A DNA stretch of 55,467 bases from a virus (taxonomy: Duplodnaviria; Caudoviricetes): IMG/VR virus record IMGVR_UViG_3300027732_000027, positions 1 to 55,467 of that record, one strand, 5' to 3'. The position numbers and the translations under genes were made by a program. The notes below the pieces were generated by a model that had not been told where the DNA came from, ran no database searches, and saw nothing but the letters and a program-made list of their open reading frames with translations. How positions within the stretch are numbered: position 1 is the first letter of the stretch; every line of letters starts with the position of its first letter. Of the stretch, positions 1 through 43,772 are shown in pieces.

Positions 1-3
1 TAT

Positions 4-78
4 TCCAGTGTAGCACAGCGGTAGTGCAGTTGACTGTTAATCAATTGGTCGTAGGTTCGATCCCTGCCACTGGAGCCA
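4..78 (+). tRNA. tRNA-Asn(GTT)
   Basis: Acceptor TCCAGTG/CACTGGA, anticodon loop CTGTTAA, GGTTCGATCC T-arm, encoded CCA. Confidence 0.95.
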
Positions 79-92
79 AGATAAGTAGTGTT

Positions 93-740
93 ATGAAACG
101 AATGGCATTATTTTTACACCATCCTGAATGCTCAGAAGATTGTGCATATGCGATGGTCCATTCGTTATCATCTGAGTATCAGATACGAATTTTTACCGAG
201 AGAGAATTAGATGACGATGACTTTTTTATTGGTCTTGATGTTATTGCTTTTCCTGGCGGTATTGGTGATAGCGACTCGTATCCTAATTTCTTCACTAGAA
301 CAAGAGCGAATCGAATCGCCAGATTCATATCAAGTGGTGGTCACTATCTTGGCATTTGTATGGGTGCTTATTGGGCTGGAAGTCGTTATTTCGATATTCT
401 GGATTCTGTAAACCCAGTACAATATATTAAGAGACCAAATGCCACTGTCCGCAGAAGTTATGGAACAGTAGCTGATGTAGAGTGGAATGGAATACAAGAA
501 CAAATGTACTTCTATGATGGTTGTGCATTGATTGGTGATGAAGATAAATTTAAGACTGTCGCACGATATGCCAATGGTGATCCAATGGCAATCATACAAG
601 GAAGAATAGGATTAATAGGTTGCCATCTAGAAGCACCTTTGTATTGGTATGAGAAACCATGGCAATACATAAACAAACATTGGAATGATGGAAGACATCA
701 TACGCTGTTATTAGATTTTGTGAATAAATTGGGGGATTAG
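93..740 (+). CDS. BPL_N / class I glutamine amidotransferase-like protein
   Basis: FPGG and YLGICMGAY nucleophile-elbow motif, GCHLE; start moved to ATG 93 because the upstream extension overlaps tRNA-Asn. Confidence 0.8.
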   Translation: MKRMALFLHHPECSEDCAYAMVHSLSSEYQIRIFTERELDDDDFFIGLDVIAFPGGIGDSDSYPNFFTRTRANRIARFISSGGHYLGICMGAYWAGSRYFDILDSVNPVQYIKRPNATVRRSYGTVADVEWNGIQEQMYFYDGCALIGDEDKFKTVARYANGDPMAIIQGRIGLIGCHLEAPLYWYEKPWQYINKHWNDGRHHTLLLDFVNKLGD

Positions 741-805
741 TATAATTGGGAAAACACTAGCCTTGCACGCTTGAGTCGGGAGTTCGATCCTCCCATCCTC
801 CACCA
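731..805 (+). tRNA. tRNA-Ala(TGC)
   Basis: GGGGGAT/ATCCTCC acceptor with G3.U70, loop CTTGCAC, TTCGA T-loop, ACCA end. Confidence 0.9.
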
Positions 806-855
806 ACAATCGCTCTCACATATGGCGTACAATAGGATAAGTAATATGTGACCAA

Positions 856-931
856 GCCCACATAGCTCATTTGGTAGAGCAATTCACTAGTAATGAATAG
901 GTGGTCAGTTCGAATCCGACTGTGGGCACCA
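856..931 (+). tRNA. tRNA-Thr(AGT)
   Basis: GCCCACA/TGTGGGC acceptor, anticodon arm ATTCA-CTAGTAA-TGAAT, TTCGAAT T-loop, ACCA end. Confidence 0.9.
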
Positions 932-937
932 AATTAT

Positions 938-1011
938 ATCTCTCTGGTGTAATGGCAGCACGTGGGTCTCCAAAACCCTTGGTCGGAGTTCGAGTCTCTG
1001 GAGGGATGCCA
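938..1011 (+). tRNA. tRNA-Trp(CCA)
   Basis: ATCTCTC/GAGGGAT acceptor, loop CTCCAAA, GCCA end. Confidence 0.9.
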
Positions 1012-1014
1012 ATT

Positions 1015-1088
1015 GCGGGGTTAGTTTAATGGTAAAACTGTAGATTTCCAATCTTCCGTTGAGAGTTCGATTCTCTCACTCCGCTCCA
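1015..1088 (+). tRNA. tRNA-Gly(TCC)
   Basis: GCGGGGT/ACTCCGC acceptor, loop TTTCCAA, TCCA end. Confidence 0.92.
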
Positions 1089-1119
1089 AGTTTTTAATGA
1101 GGTAAGAAAAGAGGTAATC

Positions 1120-1596
1120 ATGCGTAAAGATATCGACATCGATGAAGTGAAAGACTTTATCATGGCACAGAGTCCTGAATCAAAGATTTATATCGGTGGT
1201 GACTCTGAACGATTTAATATCGGAAATGAATTCTACGCTGATTACATCTTAGTGATTGTTGTTCATATCAATGGTAATAATGGTTGTAAAATCTTCGGTG
1301 AAGTATCTCGTGAAAGATGCTACGACCAGAAGAAAGATAAACCACGTATGAGATTGATGAATGAAGTTTACAAGATTGCAGACTTGTACCTAAAGTTGCA
1401 TGATGTTCTAGAGGACAGAGAAGTCCAAGTGCATTTGGATATTAATCCAAACGAAATGCATGGTTCATCTTGCGTAATAAACGAAGCAGTTGGTTACATT
1501 AAGGGTATGTGCAATGTTGTACCATTTGTTAAGCCAAACGCATTTGCAGCATCATACGCTGCAGACAGATACAAGTCTTACATGCGTGCAGCATGA
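1120..1596 (+). CDS. RNase H-like YkuK family protein
   Basis: IYIGGDS, RLMNEV, VHLDIN and AASYAAD motifs typical of the YkuK family; GAGG RBS. Confidence 0.8.
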   Translation: MRKDIDIDEVKDFIMAQSPESKIYIGGDSERFNIGNEFYADYILVIVVHINGNNGCKIFGEVSRERCYDQKKDKPRMRLMNEVYKIADLYLKLHDVLEDREVQVHLDINPNEMHGSSCVINEAVGYIKGMCNVVPFVKPNAFAASYAADRYKSYMRAA

Positions 1597-1597
1597 T

Positions 1598-1626
1598 TTG
1601 ACATGCAAGAATTTTTAATGTATAAT
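1598..1626 (+). promoter_or_regulatory. Consensus sigma70 promoter
   Basis: TTGACA-17 nt-TATAAT. Confidence 0.9.
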
Positions 1627-1648
1627 TATTGAATTGAAGGAGTTAAAT

Positions 1649-2233
1649 ATGCAAACAATTAATCTACGTAAAGCAAATGCAATCCAGAGCGAGATCCGTA
1701 AAGCGATCTCTAGTTCAGGTGTTAGCGATACTGCTACCATCACTGAGTACAGCAAAGACATTGCTGGTAGTCTTGAGAAAGCAATGGCAGATTATGCCAC
1801 TGATGTTACTCGCAAAGTAGCATTGAACACTGCGTTGTTTAACATTCGTAAGAGTGTTTCTCAAGCAAATGCTCATGCCGTCAGCGACATTCTTGCTGAT
1901 GTTGAATTGATCGATGCCAAGATCAAAGTTTATAGCGAAGTTGCCACTAAGCAAGTTGCTAAGACTCTAGACGAGATCAATGCTCGTATCGAGAAGATGA
2001 AGGTTGCACCAACTGATGCTACTGGTCGCCATGTAATCTATGGCGATCGTTACAGCACTGTGGAAACATCTGTTGTTGAGCAAAGCACTATTGATGGTGC
2101 CAAGCAAATCGTAAAGCAATTGAAGCGTGAGAAACAAACTCTTCAAGACAAGCTGTTGACTTTGAATGTCAACACCGTAATCAACATCGAGTTAACAGAC
2201 GAGATGGTATTGAAGATAGAAGGTATTCTTTAA
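1649..2233 (+). CDS. Hypothetical coiled-coil protein (194 aa)
   Basis: AAGGAG RBS then ATG 1649; helical heptad-like composition; no recognisable catalytic motif. Confidence 0.85.
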   Translation: MQTINLRKANAIQSEIRKAISSSGVSDTATITEYSKDIAGSLEKAMADYATDVTRKVALNTALFNIRKSVSQANAHAVSDILADVELIDAKIKVYSEVATKQVAKTLDEINARIEKMKVAPTDATGRHVIYGDRYSTVETSVVEQSTIDGAKQIVKQLKREKQTLQDKLLTLNVNTVINIELTDEMVLKIEGIL

Positions 2234-2239
2234 AGTTTA

Positions 2240-2497
2240 GAGGGACAATGCCGATAAGAGAGCAATGAATAGTTGCAACCTATTAACCTGAAAAGGATTA
2301 ATGGAACAAGATTGGTCTTGAAAACCACTCTGCTCAATCGTGCTCAATTCATAGTATCTGCTCCACGGATTACACTTGACTGTTATAGTCGCTGCTTGTT
2401 GCTCCGTGTTATATACTTTTGTGGGCTGTTTTTTGATAGTTGCCAATTGCATATTGCATAGCGACTATTCGCTTAAATTGACTCATTGTTCCTCACC
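2240..2497 (+). ncRNA. Putative ~255-nt structured non-coding RNA
   Basis: Ends pair (GAGGGACAATG 2240-2250 / CATTGTTCCTC 2484-2494); nested stem GAATAGTTGC 2267-2276 / GCGACTATTC 2461-2470; internal GAAA-tetraloop hairpin 2280-2304; no credible ORF. Confidence 0.65.
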
Positions 2498-2513
2498 TTA
2501 TAAGTAGTAATAC

Positions 2514-2588
2514 GCAGGATTAATTCAGCGGTAGAATGTCTCGTTGCCAACGAGAATGCCATCGGTTCGATCCCGATATCCTGCTCCA
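2514..2588 (+). tRNA. tRNA-Gly(GCC)
   Basis: GCAGGAT/ATCCTGC acceptor, arm TCTCG-TTGCCAA-CGAGA, TCCA end. Confidence 0.93.
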
Positions 2589-2601
2589 ACATGGAGATAT
2601 T

Positions 2602-2808
2602 ATGACTGAAGAAATTGCAACAGTACCACTGACCTTTAAAGAACAGTGGGAACAAAAGAAACTTCTTAAACGAGCCAAGAAAAAAGCCAAGCGAACAATG
2701 CAAGGTAAAGGGTTAGGTCGCAGAGAAGCATCAAAAGAAGTCAACAAAGCAGTCAATCGAATTGCTTCAAACAAACCAATACGACTTGCTGCTGGACGTG
2801 GTGGATGA
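2602..2808 (+). CDS. Small Lys/Arg-rich hypothetical protein
   Basis: GGAG RBS, ATG 2602; stop overlaps next start (ATGA). Confidence 0.7.
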   Translation: MTEEIATVPLTFKEQWEQKKLLKRAKKKAKRTMQGKGLGRREASKEVNKAVNRIASNKPIRLAAGRGG

Positions 2809-3482
2809 AACATTTTCCTGCTATTTGTTTTGATGACTTTTATGATGATCCAGATTCAGTTAGAGAATTTGCGTTGAGTCAAGAATTTCTGATAAATGAA
2901 ACTGGATTGTATCCTGGAGTAAGAACAAATTTCTTACATGAAATTAATCCAGAATTGTTTGATGTTTTTTGCAACAAGCTGTTTTCAATATTTTATGATT
3001 TTAATACTACGCCCACTAAGTGGGTCATCAGTACATCATTCCAACTAATAAAACCATTTTCTACTGAAGAACATTCTATAAAAAATCATGGATGGGTACA
3101 TCTAGACGATAACAAAATATTCGCTGGAGTAATTTATCTAACACCGAACATTGACATTAGCACTGGAACATCTTTGTATAAAATCAAAGACAATCCAAAA
3201 TTACTCAATTCAAATGTTAAGTATGAATTTTATAAATCTGGTATCGCCGACGATAGTTATGATAAGATTTTATCAGATCATAACAATTCATTTGTTGAGA
3301 CTGTTAGATTTAACAATGTGTACAATAGAATGATTGCTTTTGATGGAACTACATACCACAAAGCCAATAGCTATTATTCTGAGGGTGAACCAAGATTATG
3401 TCAAGTCTTTTTCTTAGAAGCCTTTCAAACATCAAGCACTACTCCAATACAAAGATCTAAATTATACAAGCTAAAGGATTAG
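2805..3482 (+). CDS. 2OG-Fe(II) oxygenase-like protein (DUF6445-like)
   Basis: DDFYDDPD..YPG.R, HxD (HLD), FAGVIYL, YNR...H..R motifs. Confidence 0.7.
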   Translation: MKHFPAICFDDFYDDPDSVREFALSQEFLINETGLYPGVRTNFLHEINPELFDVFCNKLFSIFYDFNTTPTKWVISTSFQLIKPFSTEEHSIKNHGWVHLDDNKIFAGVIYLTPNIDISTGTSLYKIKDNPKLLNSNVKYEFYKSGIADDSYDKILSDHNNSFVETVRFNNVYNRMIAFDGTTYHKANSYYSEGEPRLCQVFFLEAFQTSSTTPIQRSKLYKLKD

Positions 3483-3483
3483 A

Positions 3484-4338
3484 ATGAAGTTTACGTGGGA
3501 AAATATAAATCGGATTAATTTTGAACTTGATGAAAATCATAACGATTTAAAATCATATAAAGAAGAAGTGCGTGATTACATATCTCAAGTTACTAAAAAC
3601 AAAGAAGTAATACTTATATTCAGTGGTGGAAACGATAGCAGATTTATAGCAAGACAATTAATGGATTTAGATATTCCATTTAAAGCAGTTACCAAATCTT
3701 TTAAATCTACTTTTGATGATTACGACGCTGTTGTGAGTAAACAGTTTTGCCTTGCCAATGGTATTGAGCATGATCTTTTTTATGAGAAACCAAGAGAGTT
3801 TTTTATGAAAGTGAAACAAATTTCTAATGCTAACCATAACCATGTTTACGCACAGTTAGTTTCTTATTACATAGAAACGATACTTCAAAAATATAGGAGT
3901 GATGGATTCACAGGAGTGTTTCTAAGTGGGTGTGGAATGGAGTTTCACTTTCTAAGTGAGATTAAAAAGCTAGAGAAATATTCTGATATATACCTTTATG
4001 CTAGAACTCATCCAAGACAATTATTAGAAAACAATAAACAAGATTTATACACTCCTATGTCTGATAGAATATATTTGTCATACATAAGAAATAAAATTTG
4101 CATTAAAAAACATAACGATGGTCTATCAATTTGGACAGATATAAGAAATGCCATATATCAAGAAAGTTTTGAAGATTTAGATTTAATAAAAAAACAGCGT
4201 CAAGATGACTTAGCCATAGAACAATATTACGTCAAGAACATTATTCCATACATTAAAAATATAAATTGTCTTCCATTTATAACAGAATTCGCAACATTTA
4301 ATTTGTCTGATTACTACAGAAGAAACAAACTAGTATGA
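3484..4338 (+). CDS. PP-loop adenine nucleotide alpha-hydrolase superfamily protein
   Basis: IFSGGNDS PP-loop motif. Confidence 0.6.
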   Translation: MKFTWENINRINFELDENHNDLKSYKEEVRDYISQVTKNKEVILIFSGGNDSRFIARQLMDLDIPFKAVTKSFKSTFDDYDAVVSKQFCLANGIEHDLFYEKPREFFMKVKQISNANHNHVYAQLVSYYIETILQKYRSDGFTGVFLSGCGMEFHFLSEIKKLEKYSDIYLYARTHPRQLLENNKQDLYTPMSDRIYLSYIRNKICIKKHNDGLSIWTDIRNAIYQESFEDLDLIKKQRQDDLAIEQYYVKNIIPYIKNINCLPFITEFATFNLSDYYRRNKLV

Positions 4339-5072
4339 TATTCTTTTTTAAAAAACCCAAGTTAGTTGTAGAATGTTTTACTACATTGGATAGACTACAA
4401 AAGGTAGGCATTCCAAAAGCAAATAATTTTATTCCAGACTGGTGGAAAACAGTTGACAAAAGTTTGTGGAAAAGCAGTAAACATTCTGATATGGCTGTGC
4501 CATATCCAACTATGAAAACATGTCCAGGTTTTACAGATCTTTATAAACGTGGTAACATTCTTCCACTTTGGACAGAACTTCTGATAGAATCAGATCACTT
4601 TGGATACAAGTGGGAGTTTGCTGGCAATAATAAAAATATAAATATTGAACAGCATTCACCTGAACAGTACGCATCAAAAGAATATACTGAAGATTTCAAA
4701 TCACTACATCATGTAAAACTTAATAGCCCTTGGATCTTTAAATGTAAAAAAGATACACCATTTCTAGCAATAGAACCAGTATACAATAATTTACTAAGTA
4801 CGTATGGAATAAAATATTTACCAGGAGTGCTAAATTTTAAAGATCAACACAGCACTAATGTTAACTTCTTTATACCTGCCAATATTAATTCAATTAAAAT
4901 GTTTTATATGGATCCATTGTGCCATTTTATATGTTTAGACAATGATGTAAATGTAGAATTTAAATCGATACTAATTTCTCAAAATGAGCACGATGATTTT
5001 TCTAGAAATATGGGTTTTAGAACATCGTTTCTTAATGATTACAAAAAGTCAAGCAAGTGCCCATTTTCTTAA
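4335..5072 (+). CDS. Conserved phage protein (DUF6065/dUTPase-fold-like)
   Basis: P.WWK, TMKTCPGF, K..SPW and LPG motifs common in aquatic T4-like phage proteins. Confidence 0.55.
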   Translation: MIFFFKKPKLVVECFTTLDRLQKVGIPKANNFIPDWWKTVDKSLWKSSKHSDMAVPYPTMKTCPGFTDLYKRGNILPLWTELLIESDHFGYKWEFAGNNKNINIEQHSPEQYASKEYTEDFKSLHHVKLNSPWIFKCKKDTPFLAIEPVYNNLLSTYGIKYLPGVLNFKDQHSTNVNFFIPANINSIKMFYMDPLCHFICLDNDVNVEFKSILISQNEHDDFSRNMGFRTSFLNDYKKSSKCPFS

Positions 5073-23033: not shown

Positions 23034-23999
23034 ATGAAATTTGTTATAGGATTGATATCGTTTTTATTATTGACACCATTAGTTTGGGCATGGCAACCAA
23101 CAAAGCCGATTACTGTGATTTTGAATATGCCAGCTGGAACACCATCTGATATCGCATTTAGGATTGTTTCAAAACAAGTTGAATCTAATACTGGCGTATC
23201 ATTTGTAATAAATTATCGTCTTGGTGCTGGTGGTACTATTGGTAATGAACACTTTGCTAAGTCTGCTCCAGATGGTTATACAACTGCTCAAATTCCAATT
23301 CCAGGATTAACTGCTACAGACAGAATGGTTAACCCAAATAAGACATATACAACAAGTGATTTTATTTACATCATGGGCAGTTCTTTTGTTCCGATGACTA
23401 TTATTGCTTCAGCTTCTGATCCAGTTAATTCAATTCAAGATCTTGTAAAAGCACTCAAGACAGAAAAAACTACCATGGGTGATCCAGGTTCGGGTGGTCG
23501 TATTACATATGAATTATTTCGTTCAGTGGCTCAACTAGAAGAAAGTACAGATCGTATTGTTCGTGTTGAATATAAAGGACCAACAGATGTCGTGCAGGAC
23601 GTTGCTTCTAAGAATATTAGGTTTGGCATAGTGCCACTTGCAGCATCAAGCCAATTGCATATTGCAGGTAAGATTAAAATTATTGCTGTTAGCAGTGAAC
23701 AACGTGCACAAGCATTTCCAGATATTCCTACGCTAAGTTCTGTTTACCCATCTATGGTATATACTTTGGGTTGGGCACTTTCTTTACCAAAAGGAACACC
23801 TCAAGATATCGTTGATTGGTACAGTAAAGAATTTGTCAAAGCTACACAATCTAAAGAAGTTCAACAAAAACTTAGTGAAAGTTTCTTCTTTATTGATCCT
23901 AAATTATTAAACTCCAAAGATCTAACTGCTAAGATTCTTGCTGACGAAAAGCGATATGCAACAATTGTTGATAAGGTTTTAGAACAACAGAAAAAATAA
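23034..23999 (+). CDS. Bug/TctC-family tripartite tricarboxylate transporter substrate-binding protein
   Basis: Signal peptide, P.KPIT, GAGGTIG, APDGYT, YKG, PDIPT, PKGTP. Confidence 0.88.
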   Translation: MKFVIGLISFLLLTPLVWAWQPTKPITVILNMPAGTPSDIAFRIVSKQVESNTGVSFVINYRLGAGGTIGNEHFAKSAPDGYTTAQIPIPGLTATDRMVNPNKTYTTSDFIYIMGSSFVPMTIIASASDPVNSIQDLVKALKTEKTTMGDPGSGGRITYELFRSVAQLEESTDRIVRVEYKGPTDVVQDVASKNIRFGIVPLAASSQLHIAGKIKIIAVSSEQRAQAFPDIPTLSSVYPSMVYTLGWALSLPKGTPQDIVDWYSKEFVKATQSKEVQQKLSESFFFIDPKLLNSKDLTAKILADEKRYATIVDKVLEQQKK

Positions 24000-24001
24000 A
24001 G

Positions 24002-24030
24002 TTGTTCTGTAAGAATACATAATGTATAAT
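24002..24030 (+). promoter_or_regulatory. Sigma70-like promoter for the tmRNA
   Basis: TTGTTC-17-TATAAT. Confidence 0.65.
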
Positions 24031-24036
24031 AGTGAT

Positions 24037-24330
24037 ATGGTTGTTTGAAGTTAACCGAAAGGTGTTGCGGACAGGGGTGCAAATCCCCTCACCTCCACCA
24101 AAAGCATAATCGATATGCACATAGCATATAGAGACATAAGAAACGTGATTATGCTTTTGATGGGGGTGTACTCAGTATTCGACGTGGCAATAAGTACGAA
24201 GATGGACAACCCGAGACAGATACTCGTTAAAAGTAAAACAAAGTAAACGCAAACGACTCACAGTTCGCATTAGCAGCCTAAACGCTGCTTAGGGTTTCGG
24301 TAGGTTTCCTCGTAACAGAATAACCTACCA
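24037..24330 (+). ncRNA. ssrA: Circularly permuted (two-piece) tmRNA
   Basis: T-arm and CACCTCCACCA (ends 24100) precede GGGGGTG..TTCGAC (starts 24162); G3.U70 acceptor; intervening hairpin; tag ORF ANDSQFALAA* at 24249-24281. Confidence 0.92.
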
Positions 24331-24355
24331 CTTTTTATAATATAAAGGAAAATAA

Positions 24356-24916
24356 ATGAAATTAAAATTAATCGTTGCTACTTCTCTGGTAGCATTCTCT
24401 GCAATCGCAACTGCGCAGTCTTCAGTAACTGCTACATATGGTGTCCAGTCTCTGGTTACTAGTGATGTGCAAAATCATGTAGTTAATTTTTCTGCAAAAA
24501 CTTCAGTTACTAAAGATATCTCAGTTGATGCTGGTATTCAAAGTACAATTGCTGATGTAGCAAACACAATCACTAATCGTTATGAACTTGGTGTTAGTAG
24601 CGGAATTAGTATTCATCCTGTACTAACTACTGATCTTCGTGTTGCAAGTGGTATGAAAGCAAAATCTGGATCTCAAGATTTTTCATATTACTCTGTAGAA
24701 CCTGGAGTTAATGCAAAGTTTGGTGATGTTACTGCTCGTGTGGCATATCGTTATCGTGATGCATTCAATACTGCCAATGCAGATCGTTCTAACTCTATGC
24801 GTTATTCTGTTGGTTACACTGTAACAAAGACAGATAAAGTTACTCTTGGTTGGGACAATGTATCAGGTGATGGTGCCAACAAGACTACTACTATCGCATA
24901 TACTCGCTCGTTTTAA
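24356..24916 (+). CDS. Outer-membrane beta-barrel (porin-like) protein
   Basis: Signal peptide, alternating amphipathic strands, C-terminal YTRSF. Confidence 0.75.
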   Translation: MKLKLIVATSLVAFSAIATAQSSVTATYGVQSLVTSDVQNHVVNFSAKTSVTKDISVDAGIQSTIADVANTITNRYELGVSSGISIHPVLTTDLRVASGMKAKSGSQDFSYYSVEPGVNAKFGDVTARVAYRYRDAFNTANADRSNSMRYSVGYTVTKTDKVTLGWDNVSGDGANKTTTIAYTRSF

Positions 24917-43063: not shown

Positions 43064-43365
43064 TGCCAGCCATTAGTAGGATAGGAGATATGAGTACAGG
43101 GCACGGATGTTTTGCTCCGACTGCACTTATTCAAACTCCAGTAACAAAAACTTTTTTTAATGGTAAATTAGCTTCTGTGGTCAATACAGGATGCCTTCAT
43201 GCTCCTCATGTATGTGGGGTTGTTACCCACGCTGGTGCTACAAGATCTCCAAATAGTGGAGCGAGTAAAACCTTTATAGAAGGTAATCTAGCTGCAAGAA
43301 TAGGGGATAATATTACATGCGGAGATGCAATTGCCGAAGGATCTAGTAACACTTTTGTAGAATAA
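43063..43365 (+). CDS. PAAR-like spike tip (gp5.4-like)
   Basis: R.GD..GHG, H.C...H, AARIGD...CG..IA.GS. Confidence 0.9.
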   Translation: MPAISRIGDMSTGHGCFAPTALIQTPVTKTFFNGKLASVVNTGCLHAPHVCGVVTHAGATRSPNSGASKTFIEGNLAARIGDNITCGDAIAEGSSNTFVE

Positions 43366-43379
43366 CCTAAATAAACAAT

Positions 43380-43772
43380 ATGGCAAGAAATACAAGAATC
43401 TTTTCAGATCTAGACCTTAACTTCACTAAACATCCAGTGACGGGAGACATAACTCGCCGATATGACGACAATGCTATCAAGCAGTCCATAAAGAATTTAT
43501 TATTGACCCGAAATTTTGAGAGACCATTCCACAGTGAAATTGGTTCTCCGATTCGAGCAATGTTGTTTGAAATGCCTGGACCAATGTTTACAAATATGTT
43601 GCAACGAGCAATTATTGATGTTATTAATAACTTTGAGCCAAGAGTAGAAATTTTAGGTGTCAGAGTAGATGATTCTGTGGATACTAACTCTGTTTACATA
43701 ACATTAGAATTTAAAATAGTTAATACCGAGAGACCTATAACTCTTGACCTAGCATTAGAGAGAACCCGATAA
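43380..43772 (+). CDS. gp25: Baseplate wedge subunit (gp25-like)
   Basis: DLDL.F..HP, AIKQS..NL, ERPF, FEPRV. Confidence 0.93.
   Translation: MARNTRIFSDLDLNFTKHPVTGDITRRYDDNAIKQSIKNLLLTRNFERPFHSEIGSPIRAMLFEMPGPMFTNMLQRAIIDVINNFEPRVEILGVRVDDSVDTNSVYITLEFKIVNTERPITLDLALERTR

Follow-up and report, generated by a model that had tools for sequence, protein, structure and literature searches.

Large phages commonly carry arrays of tRNA genes, and the non-tRNA genes embedded in these arrays are largely unexplained. The tRNA cluster of phage T4 encodes two small stable RNAs, species 1 and 2, and in phages and bacteria the gene of Ro60 (Rsr) stands beside a stem-closed YrlA-type Y RNA with a tRNA-like module. 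Phased triplets are read by oligomeric proteins such as HutP, which acts on hut RNA, and TRAP, which acts on the trp leader. GOLLD and ROOL are large ornate phage RNAs (PMC12286853). Here we analyse the virus record IMGVR_UViG_3300027732_000027 of a lake phage (Caudoviricetes), the whole 55,467 nucleotides (nt) of which are referred to below as the window. Its tRNA array contains a gene for a helical protein of 194 amino acids (aa), after which comes a structured non-coding RNA. New here are a strongly covarying RNA family of about 260 nt that has no Rfam entry and a protein family that has no Pfam entry, and the pair is found in uncultured freshwater phages as well as in cultured Brevundimonas jumbo phages.

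A structured RNA of an uncatalogued family

The region 2234–2497 is a real, selected, structured plus-strand RNA of an uncatalogued family, and we regard this point as settled. No long reading frame is conserved in the 280 nt past the stop codon of the protein gene. The indels among the homologues of this region are not multiples of three and lie between blocks of invariant sequence, and no frame stays open across 37 aligned homologues. A coding function of 2234–2497 is thereby ruled out, in agreement with the first-pass annotation, which was made from the letters alone and had placed an open reading frame (ORF)-free region six nt after the stop. The RNA region shares its strand with the protein gene and starts six bases past the ORF stop.

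Folded as a single sequence, the plus strand reaches -72.8 kcal/mol (z = -2.45; 3 of 200 shuffles were equally good), while the minus strand gives z = -1.46. Seven helices were found by eye and with RNAalifold and then used for a covariance model, R1, which matches the window at 2234–2499 with 233.7 bits and with which 37 homologues (36 distinct) were aligned. Standard pairs fill 95.9% of the 1613 cells of this alignment, a share that drops to 35.4–48.2% when the 3' partners are slid by 1–3 columns; 42 of the 49 pairs show changes on both sides, and the covariation score is 0.384, against 0.045–0.068 in the controls, with none of 500 shuffles reaching any of the observed measures. The R1 alignment is fitted to the model and leans towards structure, which counts against these figures, and 23 close relatives aligned by MAFFT alone were therefore counted in the same way. 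There, 95.9% of cells were again paired (32.6–51.2% when slid), and double changes were seen in 11 pairs, compared with 1–4 in the controls and with no equal among 500 shuffles.

Covariation supports all seven helices, P1 to P7 (Table 1). They include the 11-bp closing stem and the nested stem that had been proposed from the sequence alone, and also the hairpin predicted near 2377–2391, which is recovered as 2378–2390. The proposed GAAA-tetraloop hairpin at 2280–2304 stands as a covarying hairpin (2279–2304), whereas its tetraloop is not a conserved feature, since relatives carry a different loop of 7 nt. Indels in P2 are compensated in two of the homologous loci (L042 and L037; related loci are labelled L throughout). 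G-U intermediates are frequent, one P1 pair being GU 21 times, AU 11 times and GC once; as such intermediates fit an RNA of the plus strand only, the earlier argument that G-U pairs favour structure at the RNA level holds. Positions 2386–2392, comprising the 3' strand of P7 and two further bases, are complementary to 2461–2467 in the 3' strand of P2 over 7 bp; this pairing, 96.3% paired in the homologues and with little covariation, makes a mutually exclusive alternative fold possible. A pseudoknot in which the leader AGUUU would pair with the junction AAUUGA is likewise 94.8% paired, but 45 of 500 shuffles reach its covariation score, and it is not claimed.

The unpaired parts of the RNA are conserved as well. 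The P4 loop CUUGAAA is invariant, becomes CYUGAAA in distant homologues, and is identical to the anticodon loop of the tRNA-Ser(UGA) genes of two related phages. The heptad array towards the 3' end contains four UUG triplets, each conserved in at least 95% of the 37 sequences, with their G at 2435, 2442, 2449 and 2456. Tandem Repeats Finder (TRF) reports a period of 7 with 2.1 copies of the unit, which is the only tandem repeat it detects in the RNA. Both the consensus and the fold of a distant homologue from the cultured phage Domovoi, described below, leave the array unpaired. The ACC that follows the closing stem at 2495–2497, likened to a CCA end in the first-pass annotation, is matched in nearly all of the 37 homologues by a purine, then C or U, then C, as read by eye from the alignment.

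Searches of Rfam 15 provided no family for this RNA. At E <= 10 nothing but tRNA-Gly at 2514 was found over 2150–2600; at the gathering thresholds the hits in the whole window were limited to six tRNAs and, at about 23994–24372, a permuted tmRNA; and at E <= 1 no non-tRNA family was found beside the protein gene in 12 related loci. The families tested without a match to the RNA include tmRNA, RNase P, 6S, SRP, introns, GOLLD, ROOL, RAGATH-27 and YrlA, so the earlier failure to assign the region to tRNA, tmRNA, RNase P, SRP, 6S or an intron is confirmed. No tRNA is called over 2234–2497 by ARAGORN or by the Rfam tRNA model RF00005; the tRNA-like parts present are only the anticodon-type loop and the acceptor-like P1 with its ACC, and no T arm was identified on reading the sequence and the alignments. 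Full-text literature searches, which do not extend to supplements, found no description of the RNA or of the protein. That the two remain neighbours in phages that differ widely suggests an undescribed protein-RNA particle.

Linkage of the RNA to a family of helical proteins

The gene preceding the RNA belongs to an uncatalogued family whose members occur with the RNA in diverse phages. Starting from the protein, the best 80 of 275 viral stretches encoding a relative were selected, and in 77 of these 80 loci one or more tRNAs lie no farther than about 2.5 kb away. On seven viral contigs that encode close relatives of the protein, the downstream stretch is always retained, at 74–81% nucleotide identity, so the gap after the gene, the loss of which in homologues would have spoken against the predicted pair, is kept in 7/7. 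R1 was searched against 73 sources (72 loci with a protein relative, and the window) and matched 36 of them at E < 0.01, every time on the strand of the protein gene. In 17 of the 36 the RNA starts 2–5 nt after the stop codon, in 15 it ends about 25–65 nt before the start codon, and in the remaining four it lies about 445–463 nt downstream of the gene; weaker R1 matches retain the hallmark motifs. Five whole phage records of 125–192 kb each have one protein match and one strong RNA match, separated by 2–22 nt, with the RNA downstream in three and upstream in two.

The same association is seen when the RNA is taken as the starting point. A first RNA-only motif retrieved 104 metagenome stretches, of which 26 loci also match the RNA profile and 78 do not. 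The protein is encoded in all 24 of those loci that have enough upstream sequence, the other two being cut at 98 and 7 nt. A second RNA-only motif led to 96 new viral loci, nine of which are real copies of the RNA. For eight of these, an adjacent protein gene had previously been found on the same contig, and the ninth is cut 13 codons upstream, where the remaining codons end in the C-terminal motif of the family.

A distant example is found in the cultured Brevundimonas jumbo phage vB_BpoS-Domovoi (352 kb), in which a distant homologue of the protein is followed by an unannotated gap of 313 nt. The gap contains a full-length R1 match (E 1.2e-4, filters off), and its unaided fold reproduces the nested closure by P1 and P2 (z = -4.07, with none of 200 shuffles equally good). 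Five phased UGC heptads, unpaired, take the place of the heptad array of the window. As no tRNA is annotated within 2.5 kb of the Domovoi pair, the pairing is independent of the tRNA array. On the evidence of these gene neighbourhoods we consider the genetic coupling of the RNA family to the protein family to be settled.

A helical protein of 194 aa had been predicted at this place, and the ORF at 1649–2233 is indeed predicted to be almost entirely helical. No Pfam family lies above threshold; the only PHROG match is weak (phrog_25230, unknown function, E 5.3e-6), and PADLOC finds no toxin or defence match for the protein of the window. Two relatives have weak PADLOC matches to non-toxin models, PDC-S15 and Cas8b (E 0.0042 and 0.00016, respectively). 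A word-indexed search returned 597 relatives, with no Pfam domain among the 120 listed, and an exhaustive search gave 564 clusters at 50% identity, nearly all of 184–199 aa and matching end to end.

The AlphaFold model (mean predicted local distance difference test score, pLDDT, 75.7) has a central helix of 62 residues and short terminal strands. A homodimer that is antiparallel along the long helices is predicted, with values of the interface score ipSAE of 0.45, 0.50 and 0.44, compared with 0.00 for the best of three controls; the runs, for which our own alignment was used, agree in at least 95% of contacts, with a partner pLDDT of at least 81. Among proteins solved as pairs, 20 of 30 attain the mark applied to such dimers, compared with 1 of 23 among those solved as single chains. 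The dimer prediction supports self-association of the protein but is no proof of it. The best match among solved structures (Foldseek, PDB) is 3kdq, an uncharacterised Corynebacterium protein (E 0.02, TM-score 0.38–0.46). Among predicted viral structures nine matches have E <= 0.001, all of them uncharacterised; some come from the cultured phages CcrColossus (Caulobacter), Vp_R1 (Vibrio) and one of Erwinia, and others from two giant viruses. A relationship to DIP1984/DUF6847, under which the 3kdq match also falls, is a lead only: the NCBIfam model DIP1984 matches one of 33 members at E 0.077, PF20935 gives nothing in the window, and the domain occurs in 19% of the members of one neighbouring cluster (Atlas). 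YdcH/DUF465 appears through a single PDB chain, matched along 50 residues (E 0.02).

Public sequencing runs hint, but no more than hint, at a longer life of the RNA than of the mRNA. Nineteen runs recorded as RNA contain at least part of 1598–2600; all are metatranscriptomes from lakes or other freshwater, and four of them contain half or more of its sampled words. The contigs of four runs were compared with the window, parts of which have no contig cover. In run X3 an exact contig of 228 nt covers 2249–2476 at a word depth of 117.2, compared with 23–37 for the contigs of the protein gene and its neighbours, and in runs X8 and X10 exact contigs are confined to the RNA; against this, depths taken from contigs measure abundance poorly, and DNA can be present in libraries of this kind.

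Table 1. Features of the locus in the window and, where a locus label is given, in related loci
Feature	Position	Strand	Basis or remark
Structured non-coding RNA (type A heptad-repeat RNA), ~264 nt, leader AGUUU to 3' tail ACC	2234–2497	+	covariance model R1
Gene of 194-aa helical protein, unannotated phage family	1649–2233	+	ORF list, profile searches, structure prediction
P1	2240–2250 with 2484–2494	+	11 pairs, 99.5% of cells paired; all 11 vary, 10 with both-side changes
Junction GAUAAGAGAG between P1 and P2	2253–2262	+	alignments; kept in distant matches too
P2	2267–2276 with 2461–2470	+	10 pairs, 93.7% paired, 7 with both-side changes
P3 hairpin, variable sequence, strong covariation	2279–2304	+	helices 3 and 4: both-side changes in 8/8 pairs
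P4 hairpin, 7-nt loop CUUGAAA (2317–2323)	2313–2327	+	alignments
P5, encloses P6	2342–2345 with 2423–2426	+	4 pairs, 99.3% paired, 4/4 with both-side changes
Invariant UGCUCC leading into 5' strand of P6	2359–2368	+	UGCUC at >=95%
P6, encloses P7	2363–2368 with 2404–2409	+	both-side changes in 5/6 pairs
P7 hairpin GACUG-UUA-UAGUC	2378–2390	+	97.4% paired, both-side changes in 4/5 pairs
Conserved single-stranded GCUGCUUGUUGCU	2391–2403	+	alignments
Conserved UUGUGGGCUGU, overlapping 3' strand of P5	2419–2429	+	alignments
Heptad array, UUG at 2433, 2440, 2447, 2454; exact 7-nt period, predicted unpaired	2433–2460	+	alignment, TRF
Junction AAUUGA between P2 and P1	2475–2481	+	alignment
3' strand of P1 and tail ACC	2484–2497	+	covariation and alignment
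Sigma-70-type promoter, TTGACA-17 nt-TATAAT	1598–1626	+	12/12 consensus match
tRNA-Gly(GCC)	2514–2588	+	begins 16 nt past end of RNA
tRNA genes	4–78, 731–805, 856–931, 938–1011, 1015–1088, 2514–2588	+ (all)	ARAGORN / Rfam
Type B non-coding stretch, examples	L155:3068–3404, L151:1023–1367, L169:3068–3415, L149:3071–3365		18 further loci
GOLLD RNA	L155:357–820, L188:3946–4409, L180:476–937, L176:4585–5048

A putative ribonucleoprotein and its alternatives

We favour the reading that the locus is a two-part phage module, a new ribonucleoprotein in which a stable structured RNA of about 260 nt works with a helical protein of about 190 aa, and we give it a probability of roughly 0.5. By analogy with proteins that read spaced triplets, strictly phased, unpaired and invariant triplets next to the gene of a protein predicted to self-associate make a ribonucleoprotein the most economical mechanism, with the binding of the RNA by the protein as its putative step. 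The module would be transcribed together with the tRNA array, in the window from a strong promoter of its own. RNase P, cutting at the tRNA located 4–20 nt downstream, would free the 3' side of the RNA and leave the long P1 helix with its R-C-C tail as an end that resembles a tRNA acceptor. Release by tRNA-processing nucleases is something we infer only because the RNA ends 4–20 nt before a tRNA; the flush position against the tRNA, the long closing helix and the tail together suggest that tRNA-processing enzymes define the ends of the molecule. The protein would form an antiparallel coiled-coil dimer, or possibly a higher oligomer, and dock on the unpaired (U)UG(C) triplets at their exact 7-nt spacing, its predicted rod being long enough to span several heptads. 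Meanwhile, the folded core from P1 to P7 would display the anticodon loop of tRNA-Ser(UGA) type. Such a loop suggests that the RNA meets a reader of anticodon loops, and through it the particle may engage some component of the tRNA or translation machinery of the host or the phage.

Several observations weigh against the ribonucleoprotein. The protein is not basic (mean isoelectric point about 6.7 over 33 members), unlike a classic RNA binder, and no RNA-binding domain is recognisable in it by Pfam and other profile searches. R1 has no match at E < 0.01 in 37 of the 73 sources, nor at E <= 1 in any of five further whole phage records with a gene for the protein. The 36 loci with a match include many closely related near-duplicates, and they therefore stand for few independent events, comprising at least one reversal of order, one displacement and one occurrence outside a tRNA array. 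Furthermore, in 22 of the 80 protein loci the gene is directly followed by a different conserved non-coding stretch of about 340 nt, here called type B; as it accompanies the same protein, the protein is not tied to the type A RNA alone. The adjacency may in part be no more than shared residence in a cluster of RNA genes.

Type B begins CAGACCCCG and has the conserved core GGACAGAGUAAC...CUAGGGC, and in most copies its 3' end is a tRNA-like T arm with an acceptor-like stem; Rfam matches it in neither L149 nor L155. In L169 and L172 the gene stands between the two RNAs, with type A upstream and type B downstream, and in L153 type B is followed by type A. The protein thus sits in a small, shuffling cluster of RNA genes. 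GOLLD RNAs scoring 192–207 bits (gathering score 150), each with an embedded tRNA, share the tRNA array with the protein gene in four related phage loci (Table 1); Rfam finds none in the window at gathering thresholds. Two unusual tRNAs were also observed in related loci. One has the anticodon CUA, is labelled Pyl by ARAGORN and may be an amber suppressor (L134:4088–4162, L135:4058–4132); the other is a tRNA-Ile(UAU) of 95 nt, a length that allows an insertion or intron (L134:2341–2435, L135:2336–2430, L137:2342–2436, L143:2349–2443).

An alternative that we consider possible, if rather doubtful, is that the RNA is a stand-alone stable RNA of the tRNA cluster and that the job of the protein is unrelated. 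It would then act alone, as would the small stable RNAs of T4 and T5 or GOLLD, for example by assembling without protein or by soaking up a host factor that recognises the phased UUG triplets. This alternative is favoured by the T5 tRNA region, annotated with eight 'stable RNA with unknown functions' features, and by the GOLLD RNAs in the same arrays of L155, L176, L180 and L188. The non-basic character of the protein, its occurrence without a detectable type A copy in five of five records and with a different RNA in 22 loci point in the same direction. However, the adjacency survives both the reversal of order and the move out of the tRNA array, and every testable copy retrieved with the RNA-only motifs adjoins the protein (24/24 and 8/8). 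The order reversal also tells against a cis-acting transcript element, since an RNA lying either 5' or 3' of the ORF would be intolerable for a regulator in an untranslated region. Such an element would serve processive antitermination across the untranslated tRNA array, with the protein as its factor, or would stabilise or regulate the mRNA of the protein. Untranslated arrays are exposed to Rho, the lambda N gene adjoins its nut site, and no terminator-like site was found between the ORF, the RNA and tRNA-Gly; in addition, the invariant UGCUC and UGUGGGC may resemble short boxes of ribosomal-operon leaders. Yet the 11-bp closing helix, the tRNA-like tail and the flush tRNA fit excision as a discrete molecule, Domovoi has no annotated tRNA array within 2.5 kb, and, as a weak point, one exact contig from an RNA library is confined to the RNA and deeper than its neighbours. 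We regard a cis-acting role as improbable.

Still less can be said for a type III toxin-antitoxin-like pair, with the protein as the toxin and the RNA as the antitoxin, which the first-pass annotation had offered as one option and which the analysis disfavours. The juxtaposition of a protein gene and a structured RNA is all that it shares with the locus: the protein of the window has neither a Pfam match above the cut-off nor any PADLOC match to a toxin or defence family and is predicted to fold as an all-helical coiled coil; the RNA has only 2.1 exact copies of a 7-nt unit instead of tandem repeats of 30–40 nt; its usual place is after the gene and not, with a terminator in between, in front of it; and the pair sits in large phage genomes of lytic type. 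For the decoy pair named alongside it in that annotation, the results speak neither for nor against. It is equally hard to credit that the RNA is a degenerate or expanded tRNA-Ser(UGA), or another tRNA relic that replaces a missing tRNA. The CUUGAAA loop on a stem of 4–5 bp does equal the loop of the anticodon arm of tRNA-Ser(UGA), and P1 with the R-C-C tail resembles an acceptor end, but ARAGORN and the Rfam tRNA model make no call, reading of the sequence and alignments identified no T arm, and the motifs that are unlike a tRNA are under strong purifying selection. Moreover, the array of two related, nearly complete phage records already includes a normal tRNA-Ser(UGA), so that a role of the RNA as a substitute for that tRNA is ruled out.

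If the ribonucleoprotein is real, it is a new kind of viral RNA-protein machine that combines triplets phased at seven bases with a built-in tRNA look-alike. A broader version, which we put forward tentatively and with some doubt, is a widespread new class of phage ribonucleoproteins in which the coiled-coil protein would polymerise on a triplet ruler of 7 nt and the RNA would offer its tRNA-Ser-type loop and acceptor-like end to tRNA-directed machinery (anticodon nucleases, modification enzymes or the ribosome), protecting or reprogramming translation; type B and the like would be variants of it. As a cultured phage-host pair carries the module, direct testing is possible.

Surroundings of the locus and comparison with known systems

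The promoter in front of the protein gene had been called perfect and does match the sigma-70 consensus at 12/12 positions; it is the only such site within 1–4400. It is unconserved among relatives; in L001, for example, a tRNA ends 36 nt before the ORF. Two further ORFs on the plus strand lie among the tRNA genes of the window. The ORF at 1120–1596 is RNase H-like (PF04308, E 8.8e-17; phrog_11311, E 5.9e-59), and the ORF at 93–740 has a biotin-protein-ligase N-terminal/class I amidotransferase-like domain (PF09825, E 2.2e-13). The tRNA-Thr at 856–931 (plus strand) has an A34 anticodon (AGU) and is also present in most of the related arrays. Far from the array, at 23994–24372 on the plus strand, the window encodes a circularly permuted tmRNA of betaproteobacterial type (Rfam tmRNA_permuted 116.8 bits, beta_tmRNA 104.4 bits), for which ARAGORN gives the tag ANDSQFALAA. 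Related loci L180 and L206 also contain a tmRNA, and the type of the tmRNA in the window hints at a betaproteobacterial host.

Among described systems, the stable RNAs of phage tRNA clusters have a similar setting. The T5 RNAs annotated in GenBank (RNAI, RNAIII, RNA1, RNA2, RNAX and others) are non-coding RNA genes among tRNA genes of the same strand, as here, and like the RNA of the window such RNAs are presumably cut from transcripts of the array. The difference is that, to our knowledge, the small stable RNAs of T4 and T5 do not travel with a dedicated protein. On 28 kb of the T5 tRNA region the best match of R1 has E 0.88, and the best ORF found there with the protein profile has E 0.041. 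A T5 gene, T5.085, codes for a protein of 212 aa, judged helical by its sequence alone, and is followed by an unannotated stretch of 363 nt with short phased direct repeats (L203:21143–21505, minus strand; T5 43142–43504). This arrangement looks analogous to the pair in the window, although homology is unsupported by profiles (profile comparison with T5.085, probability 0.2).

Ro60 with YrlA is a further described case of a protein gene beside a structured RNA. The protein of the window has no TROVE/vWA ring, as judged by Pfam and by its predicted fold, and the RNA has no Rfam match to YrlA; its tRNA-like part is limited to the anticodon-type loop and the acceptor-like end. With HutP and TRAP the locus shares an unpaired triplet at fixed spacing, here UUG four times with a period of 7 nt, and the gene next to it encodes a protein predicted to self-associate. 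It differs in that the protein is a predicted helical coiled coil with no match to HutP or TRAP in profile and structure searches, the triplet array is set within a large closed RNA of seven helices, and no terminator or antiterminator is evident at or after the RNA.

GOLLD and ROOL resemble the RNA of the window in being phage-borne, non-coding, highly structured and near tRNA genes, and four related loci have GOLLD in these very arrays. They are larger, at 400–800 nt compared with about 260 nt here, and Rfam matches the RNA to neither of them. They are described as RNA-only assemblies, whereas the RNA reported here is tied to a protein gene.

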